Shown here one piece after another: positions 12,240 to 35,770 of a stretch of 64,000 bases of DNA; the first letter of the stretch is position 1; the number at the start of each line of letters is the position of its first letter. The position numbers and the translations under genes are program-made. The notes beneath the pieces are model-generated. The model saw nothing but the letters and a program-made list of their open reading frames with translations, did not search any database and had not been told where the DNA came from. Source of the stretch: Mobula hypostoma (lineage: Eukaryota); contig NC_086097.1 in assembly GCF_963921235.1 (NCBI RefSeq), positions 154,320,001-154,384,000 of the forward strand, written 5' to 3'.

Positions 12240-13130
12240 TGAAAAGGAAACTACAGAAAATGTGTTAATACAATGTTACATACCTGGAGTACGGTTTTAT
12301 TCTGTTCCTGTCAGATCAGTGATGGCCCATTTCTCTTATTTGTTACACTCGACTGTCTAATGAAGCCATGAAACCATCAAGATTGCAGGATTACTTTCAT
12401 AAAAGACGCCCTGAAAAAGCTTCTTATGGTATTACTCAGTTCCAGAAGATGAAAGAAGTATTTAAAAAGCATTGCACACTCAAGCCGTTTACCAATAAAG
12501 TTAAAAATGATTTTGATAGTGGTCTCAAAATAGTAAAGTGTGGAAAATCTCATAATATTGGTGAAAGATTAATAATGCCTGCTGTATCAGAAGTGCTCAC
12601 CACTGTGCTCAAAATGGATACCAGTATTTTAAAATCAATTCCTCTGAGAAATAACCCTGCAGCTCCTTGTATTGATGAAATGAGTGAAGGCACTGAGTAT
12701 CGACTATGCACAGAGCAACAAAAACAGAAGTTAGGATTCAACTGAATTGTGCAAGACAATGAGGCATTGCTAATGGCATATGTATGGTTTATCAACAATG
12801 AAAAGTTTATGAAAAAAATCTTTCTTAAAAGGTTAAGAACAATCATCAATGAATGATGAAGAAGCAAAAATGCTTTTCTAAAATGTCAGTTTTTGTGGTA
12901 TGAGGCTACAATTTCGTACCAAGTTTCCTGGTCTTTGAAGAAGAGCCATGCTGCTCTTTATTGCTTTTTCATCCTCCTTCCTTGTAAAAAGAGGCCACAG
13001 TGCAGTGAACCACATCGCACATAAAGCAGAAACTGCTTGGTCATTGCTATGCATGGGGGCTTAAGGATTTTGCTGTCACCACTTGAAACAGATATTTCAA
13101 CTCTTGCTAAAAACCATCAAGGATCACACT
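12240..13130 (+). pseudogene. hAT Buster/Charlie transposase remnant
   Basis: YLEYGFI, LSNEAMKPSRL, HNIGERLIMPA, IPLRNN (ORF 12368-12745); C-terminal dimerisation-like LFIAFSSSFLV...SAV...RNCL at about 12955-13070; central catalytic part missing. Confidence 0.85.
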
Positions 13131-13432
13131 GTCAAAGCTGCTGTTTAGCACACAAGTACTGAGTAAGCTAGGTTTAAAGACAAATAAAGATTCAAAGTAG
13201 AATAATTTTTCTCATATTAGCATATGGTAGATGTACCATATAGGCTACTATATATTATGGGACTACTTTATGTTGTAGTAACACATCGTTGCATGCGCTA
13301 TTAGGTGCGTATTGATTTGTACATGTGTGTTCAGTTCGGTTTCAGTCAGTAAGGAACCCTGTAATTTAGCTCCCCTCTCCAGCATTTTTATTTATACCTT
13401 TGAGGTGTAACTTGGCCACATACACAACGAAT

Positions 13433-13446
13433 TGGCGACAAGGTTG
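13433..13446 (+). promoter_or_regulatory. Primer-binding site, tRNA-Ser(GCU)-like
   Basis: TGGCGACAAGGTTG, 3 nt after the 5' LTR; 12/14 to TGGCGACGAGGATG, the complement of the vertebrate tRNA-Ser(GCU) 3' end as I recall it. Confidence 0.75.
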
Positions 13447-13536
13447 ATGAACCTACATCGTATCGGAACACCGTGTTTTAATTGATAACAACACTCGGAA
13501 GAAGAGTGCAAGGTACGAGCCAAGGCAGAGCGAGGC

Positions 13537-14690
13537 GTGAGACTGAAAATGGAGTTGGATACAGGCTCAGCTTTATCAGTGATCTTTGTACACAACTACA
13601 AACAACTGTTACCTCTGAAACGAACTAAACTACTGTTAAAGACGTACACAGGACAGAAAGTGCACCCTGAAGGCAAAATTAAAGTGACAGTGCAGGCCCA
13701 TATGTCAAAGGATAAACTGACGCATATTTTTTCCAATATCAATCCTATTTGTGACAGATGTAATATTGAGGTGGTCACCTTAACTCATATGTATTGGTTT
13801 TGCATAAAGCTAGATAACTTTTGGAGAGATGTTTTTAAAATGCTATCAAAAGTCTTGGATCTGGATCTACAACCTAATTTGCTTACAGCAATTTTGGGGA
13901 TTATCCCATTGGAAGCAGGAAATATTCCTGTTTCTGCTCAACGTATGATAGCCTTTTTGACCTTTATGGCTAGGAGAGCCATTTTATTGAAGTGGAAGGA
14001 TTCTAATCCACCTACGGTCTTTTATTGGCTCTCCTCCATTATGTCCTGTTTAAGTTTAGAGAAAATAAGAAGTCAGACATTTGATACATCCTTTAAATTT
14101 GAGCAAATCTGACGACCTTTCATCCAATATTTTCATCTAATTTGACTTACCACTCTTCCAATGTTTTTTTGAAGTTTTAGATTTGATCAGAAAGTCTTTC
14201 TTTTTTTTGGTCATATCCTCAAAGTTGACTGCCCAGTCCCTTTTTTTGTTTCTTTTTTATGTATTGTGTAGTTGTTATTTTTCTTCATTTAAAATTCAAT
14301 GATTTTTCTTTCCTCTTCATGAACAGATAAGAGGAGAATGGCTGTATTCTGTTTTTTATTATATATTTTGTACTAGCTTAACAATATATATGATTTTCAT
14401 AATGTCTATCTTAATCTCGGTTTGTACTGTTATTGATATATATATATATATATATTTGAGATAATTCTCCTCTTGTTTGTATTTATGTTCCTTTTAAATC
14501 AATAAAAAGATTAATAAAGAAAGAAGGTAAAGTGAGTGACCCACGGAGGTAAAACACAGCAAATGATCCTCTATGTACTGAAAAAGGGAGGACCACCTTT
14601 GCTGGGACGTGAATGGCTCAGGAAAATCCAGTTGGATTGGCACACCATCAAGGCACCAGATGTGTCAACAATGAAGGGCAGCTTGGCGGG
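13537..14690 (+). pseudogene. Retrotransposon aspartic protease remnant, split by an L1/Tx1 insertion
   Basis: LKMELDTGSALSVI...LLLKTYTGQKV...GKIKV (13537-13687), continuing as VTHGG...[24 protein letters not shown] (from 14536). Confidence 0.88.
13688..14527 (+). mobile_element. L1/Tx1-clade LINE 3' end
   Basis: ORF2 C-terminal zinc finger CDRC...LTHMYWFC...FW and ARRAILLKWK; T-rich 3' UTR; AATAAA/A-rich tail; TAAAGTGA duplicated at 13680-13687 and 14528-14535. Confidence 0.9.
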
Positions 14691-14694
14691 GAAG

Positions 14695-15556
14695 ATGTCC
14701 GCAGCTCTCCTCTCACACATTGTCAACTATTACAACGAGGAGGAGGAGCTAGACAGCGTCAATGGTGAGGACGAATGCAGTATCCGTGGCCATGACTCGG
14801 ATGAAGATACAGAGGATACAAGGGAGACAGATATTGCCAATAAGCAGGATGATGAAGACTACCTGGAAGTAAAAGAGCAGATGTACCAGGAGAAATTGAC
14901 ATCTCCCAAATGACAGGTACAGCAGTTACAGGAAGGCATTTTACAGGAGTATCAGAAAAGGATGAAGAAATTAGATCAACAATACAAGGGAAGGATACGA
15001 AATGCAGAGCTTTTCCTGCAACTGGAGACAGACAAGTGGAAAGGAATTATATTAAAGAGAAGAAAGCAGCAGTGAAGGAATTTGAAGATAAAAAGATTGT
15101 TAGAAGAAAGAAAAAGTTGATTGAGAATGAGAGGCTACCAATGGAACTCACAGGAGATTCTATGATGGTAAAGCCAATGATGACTAGGAAACCTAATGAT
15201 CCTGTTCCAATTACAGACAAAAGACGAAAACCTGCACCAGCGCAGTTTGGGTTTGGGTTTGGGTATTTGATCCTGTACAATGTTCAACATGAGAATTTAA
15301 ACTGGAGGTGGCAGTGTTTTTTTTTTACGAGGTCAACATCAACCTGGCACGGATGAAGAGCACGCTCGGGAGCGGTCTGTCACTGGATCAAACTCAGGAA
15401 CCTCCATTCTCGAGCCCGGTGCTGATCTCACTGCACCACCAGCCGGCAGTTAAATTATTTGTTAACAAATGAACAGATAATGGAAGATCTGCAAACTCTC
15501 AATAAGCTTAAATCTCCGAAAAGACCAGCATCTCCATCTTCTCCTGAACAATTTCC
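14695..15556 (+). pseudogene. SUDS3: Intronless SUDS3 (Sin3/HDAC corepressor subunit SDS3) fragment, N-terminal two thirds
   Basis: MSAA..., [118 protein letters not shown]; premature TGA at 14911, frameshifts, small deletions. Confidence 0.95.
15248..15445 (-). mobile_element. tRNA-derived SINE inserted in the SUDS3 copy
   Basis: Head GGCTGGTGGTGCAGTG...GAGTTTGATCC on the minus strand resembles 57210-57464; (CCCAAA)n tail; GCAGTT duplicated at 15242-15247 and 15446-15451. Confidence 0.85.
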
Positions 15557-16362
15557 TTGGGAAAGATCCATGAAAATTGGTCATCCCTTAAAAGCTCTTA
15601 GACAAAATCAATTCCATTCAAACAAAACAGCTTTCGCACAAGGTAAATCTTGAACCAATGATTTCCTCCATTGAGAATCATACACTTCATCCTTTGCAGG
15701 GAAGTTTCTTTTTCACGTACATATTCTGAATCCTCAGCCAATGTGTCTTGTTTTGCACAAAGAAGTTGGGAAACAGCATCAGAGCAGAGGCGAATTCTGG
15801 CAACAAACTGTAAGTTTTCTGTTGTTGCATTTTCACACTCGTGCTGAATGCGCATCTGAAGGAATCCTCCCTCTTGAGCTAGGTACGCAATCTTTTCTTG
15901 CACTGTGCACAACTGGGATTTTTCACACATAGGATCCTCCAAACAATTCAGAAACAGTGCATAGAGTTCAGTCTCATTTTCTTGACCAAGATTTGTTTTT
16001 TTTTAAACTTCAGACAGATAGCACTGCAAGTAATCCTTAATATCAGCAAAACTGTACTTTAACAGCAGCTTAAGAACAATGGAACAAACAACAGGATTTC
16101 GATCAACTGCTTCATCAAATGGTGAAAGATTACTGATAAAGTACTGATCTTTCTGTGAGTTATCATTGGATGGCCCTGACTTTTGAATAACTAGCAGAGA
16201 CAGCAGATCACTAACCACTTCTTTTGGAAACCAAAGCTACGAAAAATGCATCACACCTCTTGTGAAATATGACTAATTTTGCTACAGCTTCACTTATTTC
16301 TTCTGTTACCACTGGTACATAACCATCATCTAGAGAAGTATGGCACATTGGGCAGATTCCCC
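15538..16362 (-). pseudogene. RNF213: Intronless RNF213 (mysterin) fragment, from the end of the RING finger into the E3 module
   Basis: CPMC...[87 protein letters not shown]...GIDFV, WIFPKE; one frame from 16218 down with two stops (16003, 15598). Confidence 0.92.
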
Positions 16363-16509
16363 CCAGACCCTTGAGTTATAATTATTATTATTATTATGTT
16401 AATTTGTTATAATTTGATATTATTAACTTACTAAGTAAACAATTGGTAGGCGTTTTATGTTAAGGGTACACATATTTGTTTAGCGTAGTGACCCAGGTGA
16501 TACACTATT

Positions 16510-16527
16510 AAAATAAAAGGGGAGGAG
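16510..16527 (+). promoter_or_regulatory. Polypurine tract
   Basis: AAAATAAAAGGGGAGGAG abutting the 3' LTR. Confidence 0.9.
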
Positions 16528-17379
16528 TGTACCATATAGCCTACTGTATATTATGGGACTACTTTATGTTGTAATAACACGTCGTTGCATGCGCTATTTG
16601 GCGCATATTGATCTGTACGTGTGTGTTCAGTTCAGTTTCAGTCAGTAAAGAACCCTGTAATTTAGCTCCCATCTCCATCGTTTTTATTTATAGCTTTGTT
16701 GTGTAACCCGGCCACATACACAACAGTAGACATGTTTTTACACTATGGGGGTGCCGGAAAGTATATTGTGCCTAACAGGGGAATTGGCATGCATGATGGT
16801 GTTTTAGGGGGGCATTGGCAAATATGAAACTTCTTTAAGGGGCAGGGTGGGGCTAAAAAAAGTTGGGAAACACGGTTTTAACCCATACACCACAGCTTTT
16901 CATCTAAAAGTGAGTTTGTAGATGTTTTTTTAGATCCAGAATTCATCATAAGAAAAGAAATCAGTGTGAAATACAGAACTGGAACTGAGGTCCTTAGTAA
17001 TCCTGATCCCTTCCACTGATCTTGTTTAGAAAGCCAACAATGGAAGGTGGGAACCTGCTGGCTCAGTTCCTCACCGAATGAACTCAATGAGCTATCAAGG
17101 AGCTACTGATTAGTATTTTCAACTAAGTTTAAAATATACACGTTTCCTACAATTTCACTGCAATACTACTTCAATATTTTATGCTTCATGTGCAGCTGAA
17201 CAGTCCCACAGTGGAAAAGTATTCATAATAAACACATGTACAGTAGGTTTGTGGGTAAAAGAAATCAAGCCTACTTTTAGGAATTCATTAAAACAGACTG
17301 TAACTCTTAGAAATTTTACAGCCGTTTCATATTTCCAGGTTCAAAAGAAAGAAGGAACATTAAAAAAAGCTTTCCAAGT

Positions 17380-31736: not shown

Positions 31737-34700
31737 TCAAGTCCGTCGCCGTGATCTACGTAGCACCAGCGGTGATTGCACCAGCGATGGCGGTTGTGCT
31801 GGCTCCGGCCTGACTTCAGGTGCCAGCACGTTAGGCATCGGTAATCCCTCATGCGTGTGCATCGCGCCCGGTACGGGAGTGTCGTGTGGTGTCTGTATAG
31901 GGTTTGGGGTGCACGGTGTCTCGTAGGTACATACATTGGTGGGTACGGGGTCAATAGTCACCACGGAGTGTTCAGGGTAGGGGCCCGGAGCTCCTGCGGG
32001 CGCCAGGTCGCGGATGGAGATCGTGTCCTCCCGCCCATCAGGTAAAACCACGTAGGCATACTGGGGGTTCGCATGAAGTAAGTGAACCCTCTCGACTATC
32101 GGGGAGTATTTATTGCTCCTCGCATGTTTCCAGAGCAGCACTGGCCCCAGGGACGTCAGCCAAGATGGTAGAGTGGTTCCAATGGTCGATTTTCTGGGAA
32201 AAGAAAAGAGCCGCTCATGAGGGGTGGCATTGGTGGCTGTGCATAACAGGGAGCGGATGGAGTGGAGTGCCTCGGGAAGGACCTCCTGCCAGCGGGAAAC
32301 CGGCAGTCCCTTTGACCTGAGGGCTAAGAGTGTGGCTTTCCACACTGTGCCATTCTCCTTCTCTACCTGTCCATTCCCCCGGGGATTATAGCTCGCGGTC
32401 CTACTGGTTGCAATTCCCCTAGCCAGTAGATATTGGTGCAGCTCGTCACTCATAAACGAGGACCCTCTGTCACTGTGGATATAGCATGGGTATCCGAACA
32501 GAGTGAAGAGCTTGCGCAGGGCTTTTATAACTGACGTGGTAGTGGTGTCGGGGCAGGGGATGGCGAAGGGGAACCGCGAGTACTCGTCAATTATGTTAAG
32601 AAAGTACACATTGCGGTCAGTGGAGGGAAGGGGCCCTTAAAGTCAACACTCAGTTGCTTAAAGGGGCGGGTGGCCTTGATGAGTGGTGCCTTTTCGGGTC
32701 GGTAGAAGTGCGGTTTGCACTCTGCGCAGACTTGGCAGTCCCTGGTCATCATCCTAATCTCCTCAAGGGAGTAAGGCAGGTTCCAGGCTTTCACGAAGTG
32801 GAAAAGCCGGGTGACTCCCAGGTGGCAAAGGTCTACATGTAGGGCGTATAGCCGGTCAATCTGCGCGCTGGCGCATGTTCCCCGGGATAGGGCATCGGAG
32901 GGCTCGTTGAGCTTCCCAGGCCTGTACATGATGTCATAGTTGTAGGTGGAGAGTTCGATTCTCCACCTCAGAATTTTATCATTTTTGATTTTGCTCCGCT
33001 GCTGATTATTAAACATGAATGCGACTGAGCGCTGGTCAGTTAGCAGGGTGAACCTTTTGCCGGCAAGATAGTGCCTCCAGTGCCTTATAGCTTCCACTAT
33101 GGCCTGGGCCTCCTTCTCTACCGCAGAGTGCCGAATTTCAGGGCCTTGAAGAGTACGGGAGAAGAACGCCACTGGTCTTCCTGCCTGGTTGAGGGTAGCG
33201 GCCAGCGCAAAGTCGGAGGCGTCACTCTCTACTTGGAAGGGAATGGCCTCATCCATCGCATGCATTGCTGCTTTGGCAATGTCCCCTTTTATGCGGTTGA
33301 AGGCCGCGTGGGCCTCGGCAGAGAGGGGGAATGTGGTGGACTTGACCAGGGAGCGAGCCTTGTCTGCATAGTTAGAGACCCATTGGGCGTAATATGAAAA
33401 GAAGCCCAGGCACCTTTTGAGGGCTCTGAGGGTATTGGGAAGAGGGAGTTCCAACAAGGGGCGCATACGGTCGGGGTCAGGGCCAATGACTCCATTCTCC
33501 ACGACACACCCAAGGATAGCAAGTCGGGTGGTCCCAAATACACACTTGTCCTTGTTATAGGTGAGGCTGAAAGATTTGGCCGCTTGGAGAAATTTTTGGA
33601 GGTTGTTGTCGTGATCCTGCTGGTCGTGACCGCAGATGGTGATGTTATCCAGATATGGGAACGTGGCCTTCAGTTGGCACTGGTCCACCATCCAGTCCAT
33701 TGCCCTCTGGAAGACAGATACACCATTCGTGACACGAAAGGGGACGCGCAGGAATTGATAATGCCTGCCATCCGCCTCGAAGGCAGTGTAAGGGCGGTCC
33801 TCCCGGCGGATGGGGAGCTGATGGTAAGCAGATTTTAGATCTATGGTCGAGTACACCTTGTACTGTGCTATCTGATTGACCATATCCGCGATGCGGGGTA
33901 GAGGGTACGCGTCGAGCTGCGTGAACCTATTAATGGTCTGGCTATAGTCCACGACCATCCTATTCTTCTCCCCGTTCCGAACAACCACCACCTGCACCCT
34001 CCAAGGACTTGTGCTTGTCTCAATGACCCCCTCCCTGAGCAGCCGCTGCACCTCCGACTTAATGAAAGCTCTGTCCCCCGCGCTGTACCTCCTGCTTTTA
34101 GTTGCCACAAGTTTACAGTCAGGGGTCAGGTTGGCGAACAGCGGTGGGGGAGGGATCCTGAGGGTGGAGAGGCCGCAAGTGGTGTCGGTAGTGTGGCAGT
34201 TGGCATGATGTTGGGTGGGATGCGCGGGTCGGTGTGTGTGTGTGGTCAGTAGCGGGGTACATGACATATCTCTACAAAACAGGGGATTTATGACAGTAAT
34301 TGGCGGGAGGGGCCCATCATACTTCATTGTCACGCTTTTCAGGTGGCTCTGGAAGTCCAACCCCAACAGCACAGGGGCACACAGTTGAGGCAAGACCAGT
34401 AACGTAAAGTCCCAATATTCTGTGCCCTGCACCACTAGTGTCGCTACACAACCCCCCGGATGTCTGTTGTATGCGACCTGGAGGCCATGGTGACCCTCCG
34501 ACTTACCGGCCGTATCATGAGTCCACAATGCTGCACCGTGGCCGGGTGGATAAAACTCTCCGTGCTGCCTGTGTCAAACAGGCAGCTTGTCCTGTGCCCC
34601 TCCACCAGGATGTCCATCATTGACCTTGCGAGCTGGTGGGGAGAGCTTTGGTCGAGGGTCACGGAAGCCAGGGTGGGGTCGCTGTCTTGGTCCGGCGTGG

Positions 34701-35645
34701 TGGGGTGCCCCGTAAGCACCCGTTGGTCGTAGGCGGTGGGAGGTGGCGCCGACCAAGATGGCCGCCCCCATATCTCGCACGTGGTGGTGGCGTGCAGGGA
34801 AGATGGTGGCAGGCAAGATGGCGACCCCCATGTCTCGCACGTGGTGGCAGTGTGCAGGGAAGATGGCAACCCCCACGTCGCGCACGCAGTGCTGCTCGAT
34901 CCCGCTCGCGGTTTTGACTTACAAACCTTGGCGAAGTGGCCTTCTTTCCGCAGCTGGAGCAGGTAGCTTGTCGGGCCGGGCAGCGTTTCCGGGGATGCTT
35001 CTCCAGTCCGCAGAAGTAGCACTTCGCGGATTCACAACTGGCGGCAGCCGAGGTCGATTCGCCGGCAGGTTGCGGGGTCTGCGGCACCCACAAGGCCATC
35101 GGGGGATCGCGTGCCTGGAGAGCCTCGGAGTTATGCAGAGCGGCCTCCAACGTATTAGCCAGCTCCATCGCCGAATTTAGGGTAAGATCGGCTTTTTCCA
35201 GCAGCCGCTGGCGCACGTACACTGACCTGGTCCCCGTGACGAAGGCTTCCCTCACTAGGAGTTCTGCATGCTGCGCCGCCGTCAGCTCCTGGCAATTGCA
35301 GGCCCGCACGAGCGTCCGTAGGGCCTGGACGAACTCAGCACTTGATTTCCCGGGACGTTGTTGCCGTGTTGCTAAACGGTGCCGAGCATAGACGCTGTTT
35401 ATCGGCCGCAGGTATTGCCTTTTGAGTGGGTTCATCGCGCCGTCGTAGTTCGGCTGGTCTCTGATCAGCGAATAGACCCGTGGACTGACCCTGGAGAGTA
35501 GAACTCTGCGCTTCGCTACGGGGTCGGTCGCTTTAATCTCCTCTAGATACGCTTCGAAGCAGGCCGGCCAGAGTTCAAAAGCGTTTCCAGCTTCAGGTGT
35601 TTGTGGATTGAGGTCTAATTTTTCTGGTCTCGGGGCCTGTTCCAT
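31737..35645 (-). pseudogene. gag-pol polyprotein broken by three frameshifts
   Basis: Two CCHC knuckles (CYFCGLEKHPRKRC; CSSCGKK/GHFAKVC), PR LFDTGS, RT YLDN box, RNase H ESDAS...EKEA...TDQ, IN HHCC + VDFKG/HSDRG/QVEKEN; frame breaks near 34940, 34455 and 32630. Confidence 0.95.
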
Positions 35646-35770
35646 GTTTTAAAACGTACAGCGAATAAAATTGAAGCACCTTCAATTACTCCAAAAGACT
35701 GAGGTTTGGTAAAATACTGAAACTCTTATTCGCTGTACAATACGACCTCCACAGTGAGTGTCTGCCCCCG

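Follow-up and report, generated by a model that had tools for sequence, protein, structure and literature searches.

We analyzed a window of 64,000 nucleotides from the ray Mobula hypostoma (contig NC_086097.1, positions 154,320,001 to 154,384,000, forward strand), in which positions 13227..16730 hold a long terminal repeat (LTR) retrotransposon with its target site duplication, and spliced pieces of the host genes SUDS3 and RNF213 in its interior. This element belongs, as a decayed copy, to a non-autonomous family of Gypsy LTR elements, and the cis-acting signals that an earlier note on this DNA had described are all present. A 5-bp duplication, GTAGA (13227..13231 and 16726..16730), flanks two LTRs of 198 nt each (13232..13429 and 16528..16725, both +), which are 90% identical to each other, and the 5' LTR is 92% identical to the 3' LTR of L127, a relative bearing reverse transcriptase (RT). 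The family LTR has the ends TG...CA, and the 5' LTR of the window copy ends in CG through a point change. A primer-binding-site-like motif and the start of the leader follow at 13430..13532 (+), with TGGCGAC, common to the family, at 13433, while a polypurine tract (16515-16527) closes the segment containing the last integrase codons and the 3' region of the element (16360..16527, +).

The aspartic protease is split into an N-terminal part with the DTG motif (13533..13692, +) and a C-terminal part (14528..14682, +), which runs in frame into SUDS3's 5' untranslated region (UTR) through a 7-nt microhomology at 14676-14682. Between the two parts lies the 3' end of an element resembling a long interspersed element (LINE), of 835 nt (13693..14527, +), with an A-rich tail and a duplication of ~13 nt, which we take to be an L1 and for which no Pfam match was found. 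The spliced SUDS3 cDNA begins at 14676..15247 (+) with nucleotides 1-612, comprising 19 nt of 5' UTR and exons 1 to the start of 8 in sense orientation, and is interrupted by a 198-nt insert with a 6-nt duplication (15248..15445). It continues at 15446..15556 (+) with exons 8-10, including the Sin3-interaction helix, and is cut at about residue 230. The spliced RNF213 fragment (15541..16359, -) comprises six exons, from the end of the RING onward, antisense to the element. Both inserts are private, each being absent at its site from the other family copies examined. In addition, ~1160 nt of leader and gag are deleted just after 13532 in the window copy only, and the SUDS3 part carries a stop, frameshifts, and the region of a family-wide 24-nt deletion. 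No gag, RT, or integrase core is found in the window copy, and Pfam gave no match on its 10 short open reading frames (ORFs). The copy had rightly been called decayed, although the two private inserts had been missed.

The identity of the cargo was established from less broken sister copies and from the parent genes. In the window copy, SUDS3 (14676-15247 and 15446-15556) is 88-94% identical to the spliced host gene over exons 1-10, crossing nine exon junctions, and RNF213 (15541-16359) is 89% identical to its spliced parent over six exons, crossing five junctions. Both pieces are therefore spliced host mRNAs, as their intronless appearance had suggested. Among the sister copies, L003 matches Pfam Sds3 and PDB 4zqa/2n2h, and L004 matches RNF213 in PDB.

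Sister copies also reveal the original organization of the family, which consists of LTR, primer site, gag with a zinc knuckle, protease, and SUDS3, all in one frame. Open frames of 321-407 codons still span the protease-SUDS3 join in L003, L005, and L007. The Pfam protease matches on L005 score under the curated cut-off. The full relatives nearest to the family are Gypsy elements whose single ORF includes RT, RNase H, and integrase, more specifically K02A2.6-like elements (P0253, P0255), which share with the family the gag zinc knuckle, the 5-bp target duplication, and the same integrase C-terminal motif. The gag-protease of the family is 57% identical to P0253 over 314 aa, and P0255 shows by Pfam the domain order protease-RT-RNaseH-integrase. 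In the same genome (3.48 Gb), RT-bearing relatives share the LTR and gag-protease at ~86-92% identity and have RT directly after the protease and the integrase tail at the end. Unlike these elements, the SUDS3-bearing copies encode no RT, RNase H, or integrase core, pol being replaced rather than interrupted. The RT-RNaseH-integrase region is replaced by the full spliced SUDS3 mRNA, in frame with gag-protease. The earlier statement that only a protease remnant is left holds for the window copy, but not for the family, which keeps gag-protease fused in frame to SUDS3.

Host SUDS3 is single-copy (one genome-wide match for a stretch absent from the cargo), has 12 exons over 59 kb, and its spliced coding sequence (CDS) corresponds to the Mobula protein P0059 minus an 8-residue alternative segment. 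The basic cargo, 90-93% identical to it, contains the entire CDS, preceded by 19 nt of 5' UTR and followed by 113 or 339 nt of 3' UTR, and crosses all 11 exon junctions, the AT-AC intron included. That intron, host intron 7 (G000:C78:8395736-8398854), has AT-AC ends of the minor-spliceosome type and is exactly removed in the cargo. At the 5' junction, the end of the protease coincides with the 5' UTR over 7 nt (GGGCAGC), and at the short 3' junction the 3' UTR coincides over 7 nt (GACAGAC) with the final 16 codons of integrase. No poly(A) or target duplication of its own was found on the SUDS3 cargo in the copies examined. All 88 loci covering the region lack the same 24 nt of the coiled coil (8 residues), indicating that SUDS3 was captured once. 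Two SUDS3 3' junctions occur, with 339 nt of 3' UTR in 17 loci (such as L073, L082, and L138) and 113 nt in 29 loci (such as L045 and L050). The shorter one keeps more of the integrase tail, which indicates recombination with helper RNA after the capture.

Genome-wide pattern counts, allowing up to two mismatches, gave at least 333 matches for the SUDS3 exon 2/3 junction, 198 for the RT start, 542 for the protease end, and at least 118 for an RNF213 exon junction, with zero matches for all control patterns. Of the loci located with different queries, these patterns recover 48 of 54 and 22 of 25, so that the counts are slightly low. Searching with the protease-SUDS3 region returned the same join in 40/40 scored candidates, and the 30 protease-anchored loci on C1 continue either into SUDS3 (22) or into pol (8). 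A further large cargo family replacing pol was considered and rejected, as 542 is close to 333 + 198 and all 30 protease-anchored loci are SUDS3 or pol. Odd segments inside copies were likewise considered as further cargo and rejected, most of them being private inserts, which presumably belong to LINEs, short interspersed elements (SINEs), or the class resembling miniature inverted-repeat transposable elements (MITE-like). Among SUDS3-bearing copies in which both LTRs are intact (n=26), 24 show a target duplication matching at four or five of five positions, and 25 different sites are represented. The LTRs diverge by 0.10 on average (0.047-0.148) in SUDS3-bearing copies and by 0.09 in five RT-bearing copies; the two forms spread during the same period and both look extinct. 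A gene-capturing, non-autonomous family, as the earlier note had proposed, is thus found, with at least 333 SUDS3-junction copies and an RT-bearing partner with the same LTRs. Its further proposal that the chimera moved as one unit is supported by the 118 RNF213-junction matches and by the separate target duplications of family copies.

Alternatively, the copies could be processed pseudogenes of the usual LINE-made kind, or segmental duplicates, whose position inside LTR elements is accidental. SUDS3 is indeed listed as one of the top retrocopy parents of cartilaginous fishes in the available part of a 2026 bioRxiv preprint (10.64898/2026.06.26.734816) that ties such retrocopies to non-LTR elements. 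Against this, the cargo is joined to element sequence in 40/40 loci picked by the SUDS3 junction alone (a sample which omitted six loci already sampled). These 40 comprise 23 loci with SUDS3 only, four with RNF213 added, seven with RNF213 and YBX1, and six left unassigned to a type. Moreover, the copies share the same junction base and deletion and yet have different 5-bp target duplications at their LTR ends, and pol is replaced, not interrupted. We consider the pseudogene or duplicate origin extremely improbable and reject it for the sampled copies.

The RNF213 cargo derives from the gene at C68:48.81-48.83 Mb and comprises eight exons, RING finger included, in the longest copies, compared to six in the window copy. 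Contig C68 carries two RNF213-like genes with RZ fingers, at 41.3 Mb and 48.8 Mb, the cargo coming from the second; the gene at C68:41.3 Mb was rejected as parent, with 35-53% amino-acid matches only. A profile-free search with representatives bearing the RNF213 piece gave distant matches only. SUDS3 resumes at cDNA position 687 past RNF213 in L069, L083, L085, L139, and L157, whereas other copies reach ~708 before the insert, which indicates that RNF213 was inserted antisense into the SUDS3 cargo with a duplication of 12-22 nt. This duplication is pieced together from two branches, and the two original junctions do not occur together in any copy examined. SUDS3 was acquired first and in full, and RNF213 was inserted later, in antisense; the window form arose via a later deletion reaching the integrase tail. 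The two fragments, taken together in the earlier note without mention of strand, are thus both spliced host mRNAs, but they were not acquired together, and RNF213 lies on the opposite strand.

How RNF213 entered is less clear. The ends of the antisense piece show microhomologies of 7 and 3 nt and no poly(A), and both a plus-strand switch onto RNF213 mRNA and LINE-type internal priming fit this entry. In the LINE-type case, which concerns this step only, target-primed reverse transcription would have been primed internally on RNF213 mRNA and directed into an integrated, active copy. The 12-22 nt duplication around the insert, its antisense orientation, and the many LINE inserts in family copies are consistent with such a route, to which we assign a little under even chances: poly(A) is lacking, the piece comes from the interior of a very long mRNA, the microhomology at both ends also suits a plus-strand switch onto the mRNA and back, and the duplication is the composite one described above. 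Template switching, as put forward in the earlier note, is therefore well supported for SUDS3 and YBX1 and not shown for RNF213. A poly(A) tail or duplication belonging to the cargo itself would have spoken against capture; SUDS3 shows neither, and RNF213, which has no poly(A), partly shows this sign through the 12-22 nt duplication in its longest copies.

Other cargo between the same LTRs, which the earlier note had proposed to catalogue, was found in the form of YBX1 and, in one copy, part of RPS8. Some 700 nt of spliced YBX1 (parent G000:C75:3285076-3305325), comprising seven exons and matching the Pfam cold-shock domain (CSD) and PDB 6a6j, replace SUDS3 after residue 126 in sense orientation. 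The junction homologies are 11 and 10 nt, and YBX1 is in frame at the junction in four of five copies translated. This cargo occurs at ~30 loci, and all nine examined (L140, L154, L160, L163, L172, L174, L175, L189, and L195) lie in the element. In the RNF213-bearing copy L096 (G000:C50:14925534-14925820), a partial RPS8 cDNA replaces the 5' LTR end and the primer site; with only nine RPS8 matches genome-wide, this cargo was not amplified. Seven copies from different cargo branches (L071, L074, L083, L095, L141, L158, and L168) have in common an in-frame duplication of 117 nt in gag, which suggests that co-packaged RNAs recombined.

Taken as a whole, we regard as probable an account in which SUDS3 was captured by a Gypsy template switch, copied in trans, and followed by serial later captures, the cargo being a passenger. 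A single-ORF Gypsy retrotransposon would have co-packaged host SUDS3 mRNA, and its RT would have switched template at the short homologies observed at the junctions, with spliced SUDS3 taking the place of all sequence from the protease up to the final 16 codons of integrase. The product would retain the LTRs, primer site, purine tract, and gag-protease, and would have been copied in trans by the RT and integrase of intact relatives such as those observed in this genome. Being shorter and still making its own Gag, it would have spread more than these relatives. One descendant would then have gained antisense RNF213 cDNA within SUDS3, further deletions yielding the window form, and a separate branch would have captured YBX1. 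The choice of cargo would reflect which mRNAs met the particle, rather than the function they encode.

The substitution counts bear on this last point. Low-frequency SUDS3 changes, from 105 loci, are neutral, with dN/dS-like values of 1.06 for transitions and 0.80 for transversions and with stops at the neutral rate. Fixed differences between the cargo and the host gene number 11 silent and three replacement (unpolarised), and the eight non-CpG silent ones compare with 7.7 expected on the host lineage alone. Among branch-diagnostic changes, from which 13 loci left unassigned to a type are excluded, SUDS3 shows eight replacement and one silent, the latter visible only in the deletion alignment; this count leaves out cDNA 381-399 and 709-713 (6 of 15 rows) and one UTR row. 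Gag-protease shows 23 replacement and 16 silent changes, a mild silent excess (p=0.027, CpG effects included) calculated without the rows involving AUT (10 replacement, one silent). No purifying selection on the SUDS3 cargo was found in these unpolarised, low-power counts. Furthermore, the RNF213 branch still spread without the capped Tudor domain, as did the YBX1 branch without the Sin3-binding helix (PDB 2n2h region), and the antisense RNF213 is not translatable from the element. The capped Tudor domain corresponds to mouse SUDS3 residues 250-326 in the portion of PMC8800102 available.

Several observations weigh against a capture by simple template switching with passenger cargo. The antisense RNF213 piece does not match a plain minus-strand switch model. 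The three fixed CpG changes in SUDS3 are all silent, the contrast between SUDS3 and gag-protease is not significant (p=0.13), the fixed differences are unpolarised, and the gag-protease test retains CpG effects. Lastly, the frame is kept by all four shared events downstream of the protease (the SUDS3 fusion, the 24-nt and 57-nt deletions, and the YBX1 fusion), for which the chance, counted post hoc, is ~0.012; only 23 of 84 and 52 of 266 private indels keep the frame.

These four events are the reason why we keep under consideration that the family spread because of its cargo. Gag-protease-SUDS3 would be translated and cleaved, and the released SUDS3, altered by the loss of eight coiled-coil residues, might act as a dominant negative that poisons Sin3-HDAC silencing; alternatively, its coiled coil might replace RT as the dimeriser of the protease, with YBX1 later serving as an RNA chaperone. 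The full SUDS3 CDS was taken, from 5' UTR to stop, in frame behind a retained protease end, no branch-diagnostic stop occurs, and the derivative exceeds its helper by 333 to 198. SUDS3 also provides dimerisation and binds Sin3 and HDAC, as far as the accessible text of PMC8800102 describes it. Nevertheless, SUDS3 carries no purifying signal, 9 of 25 copies of B1 have a Leu-to-Pro change, truncation at residue 230 or 126 did not keep branches from reaching at least 118 and ~30 copies, and the RNF213 piece is antisense and untranslatable. Non-autonomous LTR derivatives often outgrow their helpers without any cargo function, according to the sections of PMC5131818 at hand. We judge both forms of cargo-driven spread unlikely from these sequence data, and even if selection kept the frame open, it need not have acted on what SUDS3 does. 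If the cargo did drive the spread, the family would be a case of a vertebrate retrotransposon turning genes taken from its host against silencing. The counter-defence link, flagged as speculation in the earlier note, finds no support in the substitution counts and is unsupported, the in-frame bias being the single hint of function.

The passenger account can be compared with several known systems. Acutely transforming retroviruses carry host cDNA fused in frame to gag in place of replication genes and need a helper. The ray family differs in having no env, in being a germline retrotransposon, and in that selection on the cargo protein is unsupported. In what is available of Tan et al. 2016 (PMC5131818), a double template switch captures host mRNA into LTR elements. 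As in the ray family, a host mRNA takes the place of some of the internal ORF while both LTRs are kept, junction microhomology is ~6 nt, and multi-gene chimeras and further non-autonomous rounds occur. The same features are found for SUDS3 and YBX1, which are intronless, replace the internal ORF, and show microhomology but no poly(A) and no duplication of their own; the cargo exons amount to 12 for SUDS3, up to 8 for RNF213, and 7 for YBX1. The cases of Tan et al. in that text (PMC5131818) are 15 polymorphic retrocopies in flies, nine of which account for 18 insertion sites, and a few per vertebrate, mostly from partial mRNAs. The ray family, in contrast, has at least 333 copies from one capture, with a complete CDS in frame with gag-protease, and took up three cargoes in series, one of them antisense, with amplification at each stage. 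Maize Bs1 and human HERV-K/FAM8A1 are, in the same text (PMC5131818), LTR elements carrying spliced fragments from as many as three unlinked host genes, like the ray family, which differs as a vertebrate Gypsy with hundreds of copies and an identified helper. The capture mechanism is therefore already known, and the scale and serial capture are unusual. No earlier description of this family was found in the literature searched, a scope that excludes most subscription papers, Repbase, Dfam, and preprint supplements.

The family is a large, readable case of vertebrate LTR gene capture, in which one event gave hundreds of copies, more than the helper has. Subsequent captures and recombination are recorded in layers, and every parent and junction in that record is open to mapping. 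An inference in the preprint mentioned above (10.64898/2026.06.26.734816) needs correcting in this light: the part available places SUDS3 high on the list of retrocopy parents in cartilaginous fishes and reads such lists as expression bias and selective filtering under non-LTR machinery. We attribute this rank to the amplification of one LTR capture, as the SUDS3 copies in this genome represent one hitch-hiking event, and MIPOL1, SDF2L1, SLU7, and ZNF276, which are listed as parents too, may have the same explanation. Several copies are annotated as Mobula genes: six 'SDS3-like' proteins from two Mobula species carry the deletion of the family and two of its fixed changes. The named proteins that come nearest are those of Pristis and Mobula. 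Among 55 matches, no longer annotated Gag-protease-SUDS3 protein was found, which is weak evidence. DNA sequencing runs of five organisms contain 0.30-0.41 of the sampled words of one family copy, and no RNA run was among the holders listed. Contigs bridging protease and SUDS3 occur in the DNA run of organism E and in two of three presumed RNA runs (from organisms A and F), which are unstranded and may include DNA.

At gag position ~506-510, four independent inserts of differing lengths with similar inverted ends (L083, L150, L154, and L163) represent a target-preferring DNA transposon. Left of the element in the window, a 140-aa frame at 12323-12745, with no Pfam match, resembles what we assume to be a hAT/Buster transposase remnant. 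Another, unrelated Gypsy element lies at 31737-35648 (-), its frames being gag-like, RT, RNase H, and integrase, and the ARAGORN call of a tRNA-Gly within it (32882-32972) is probably spurious.

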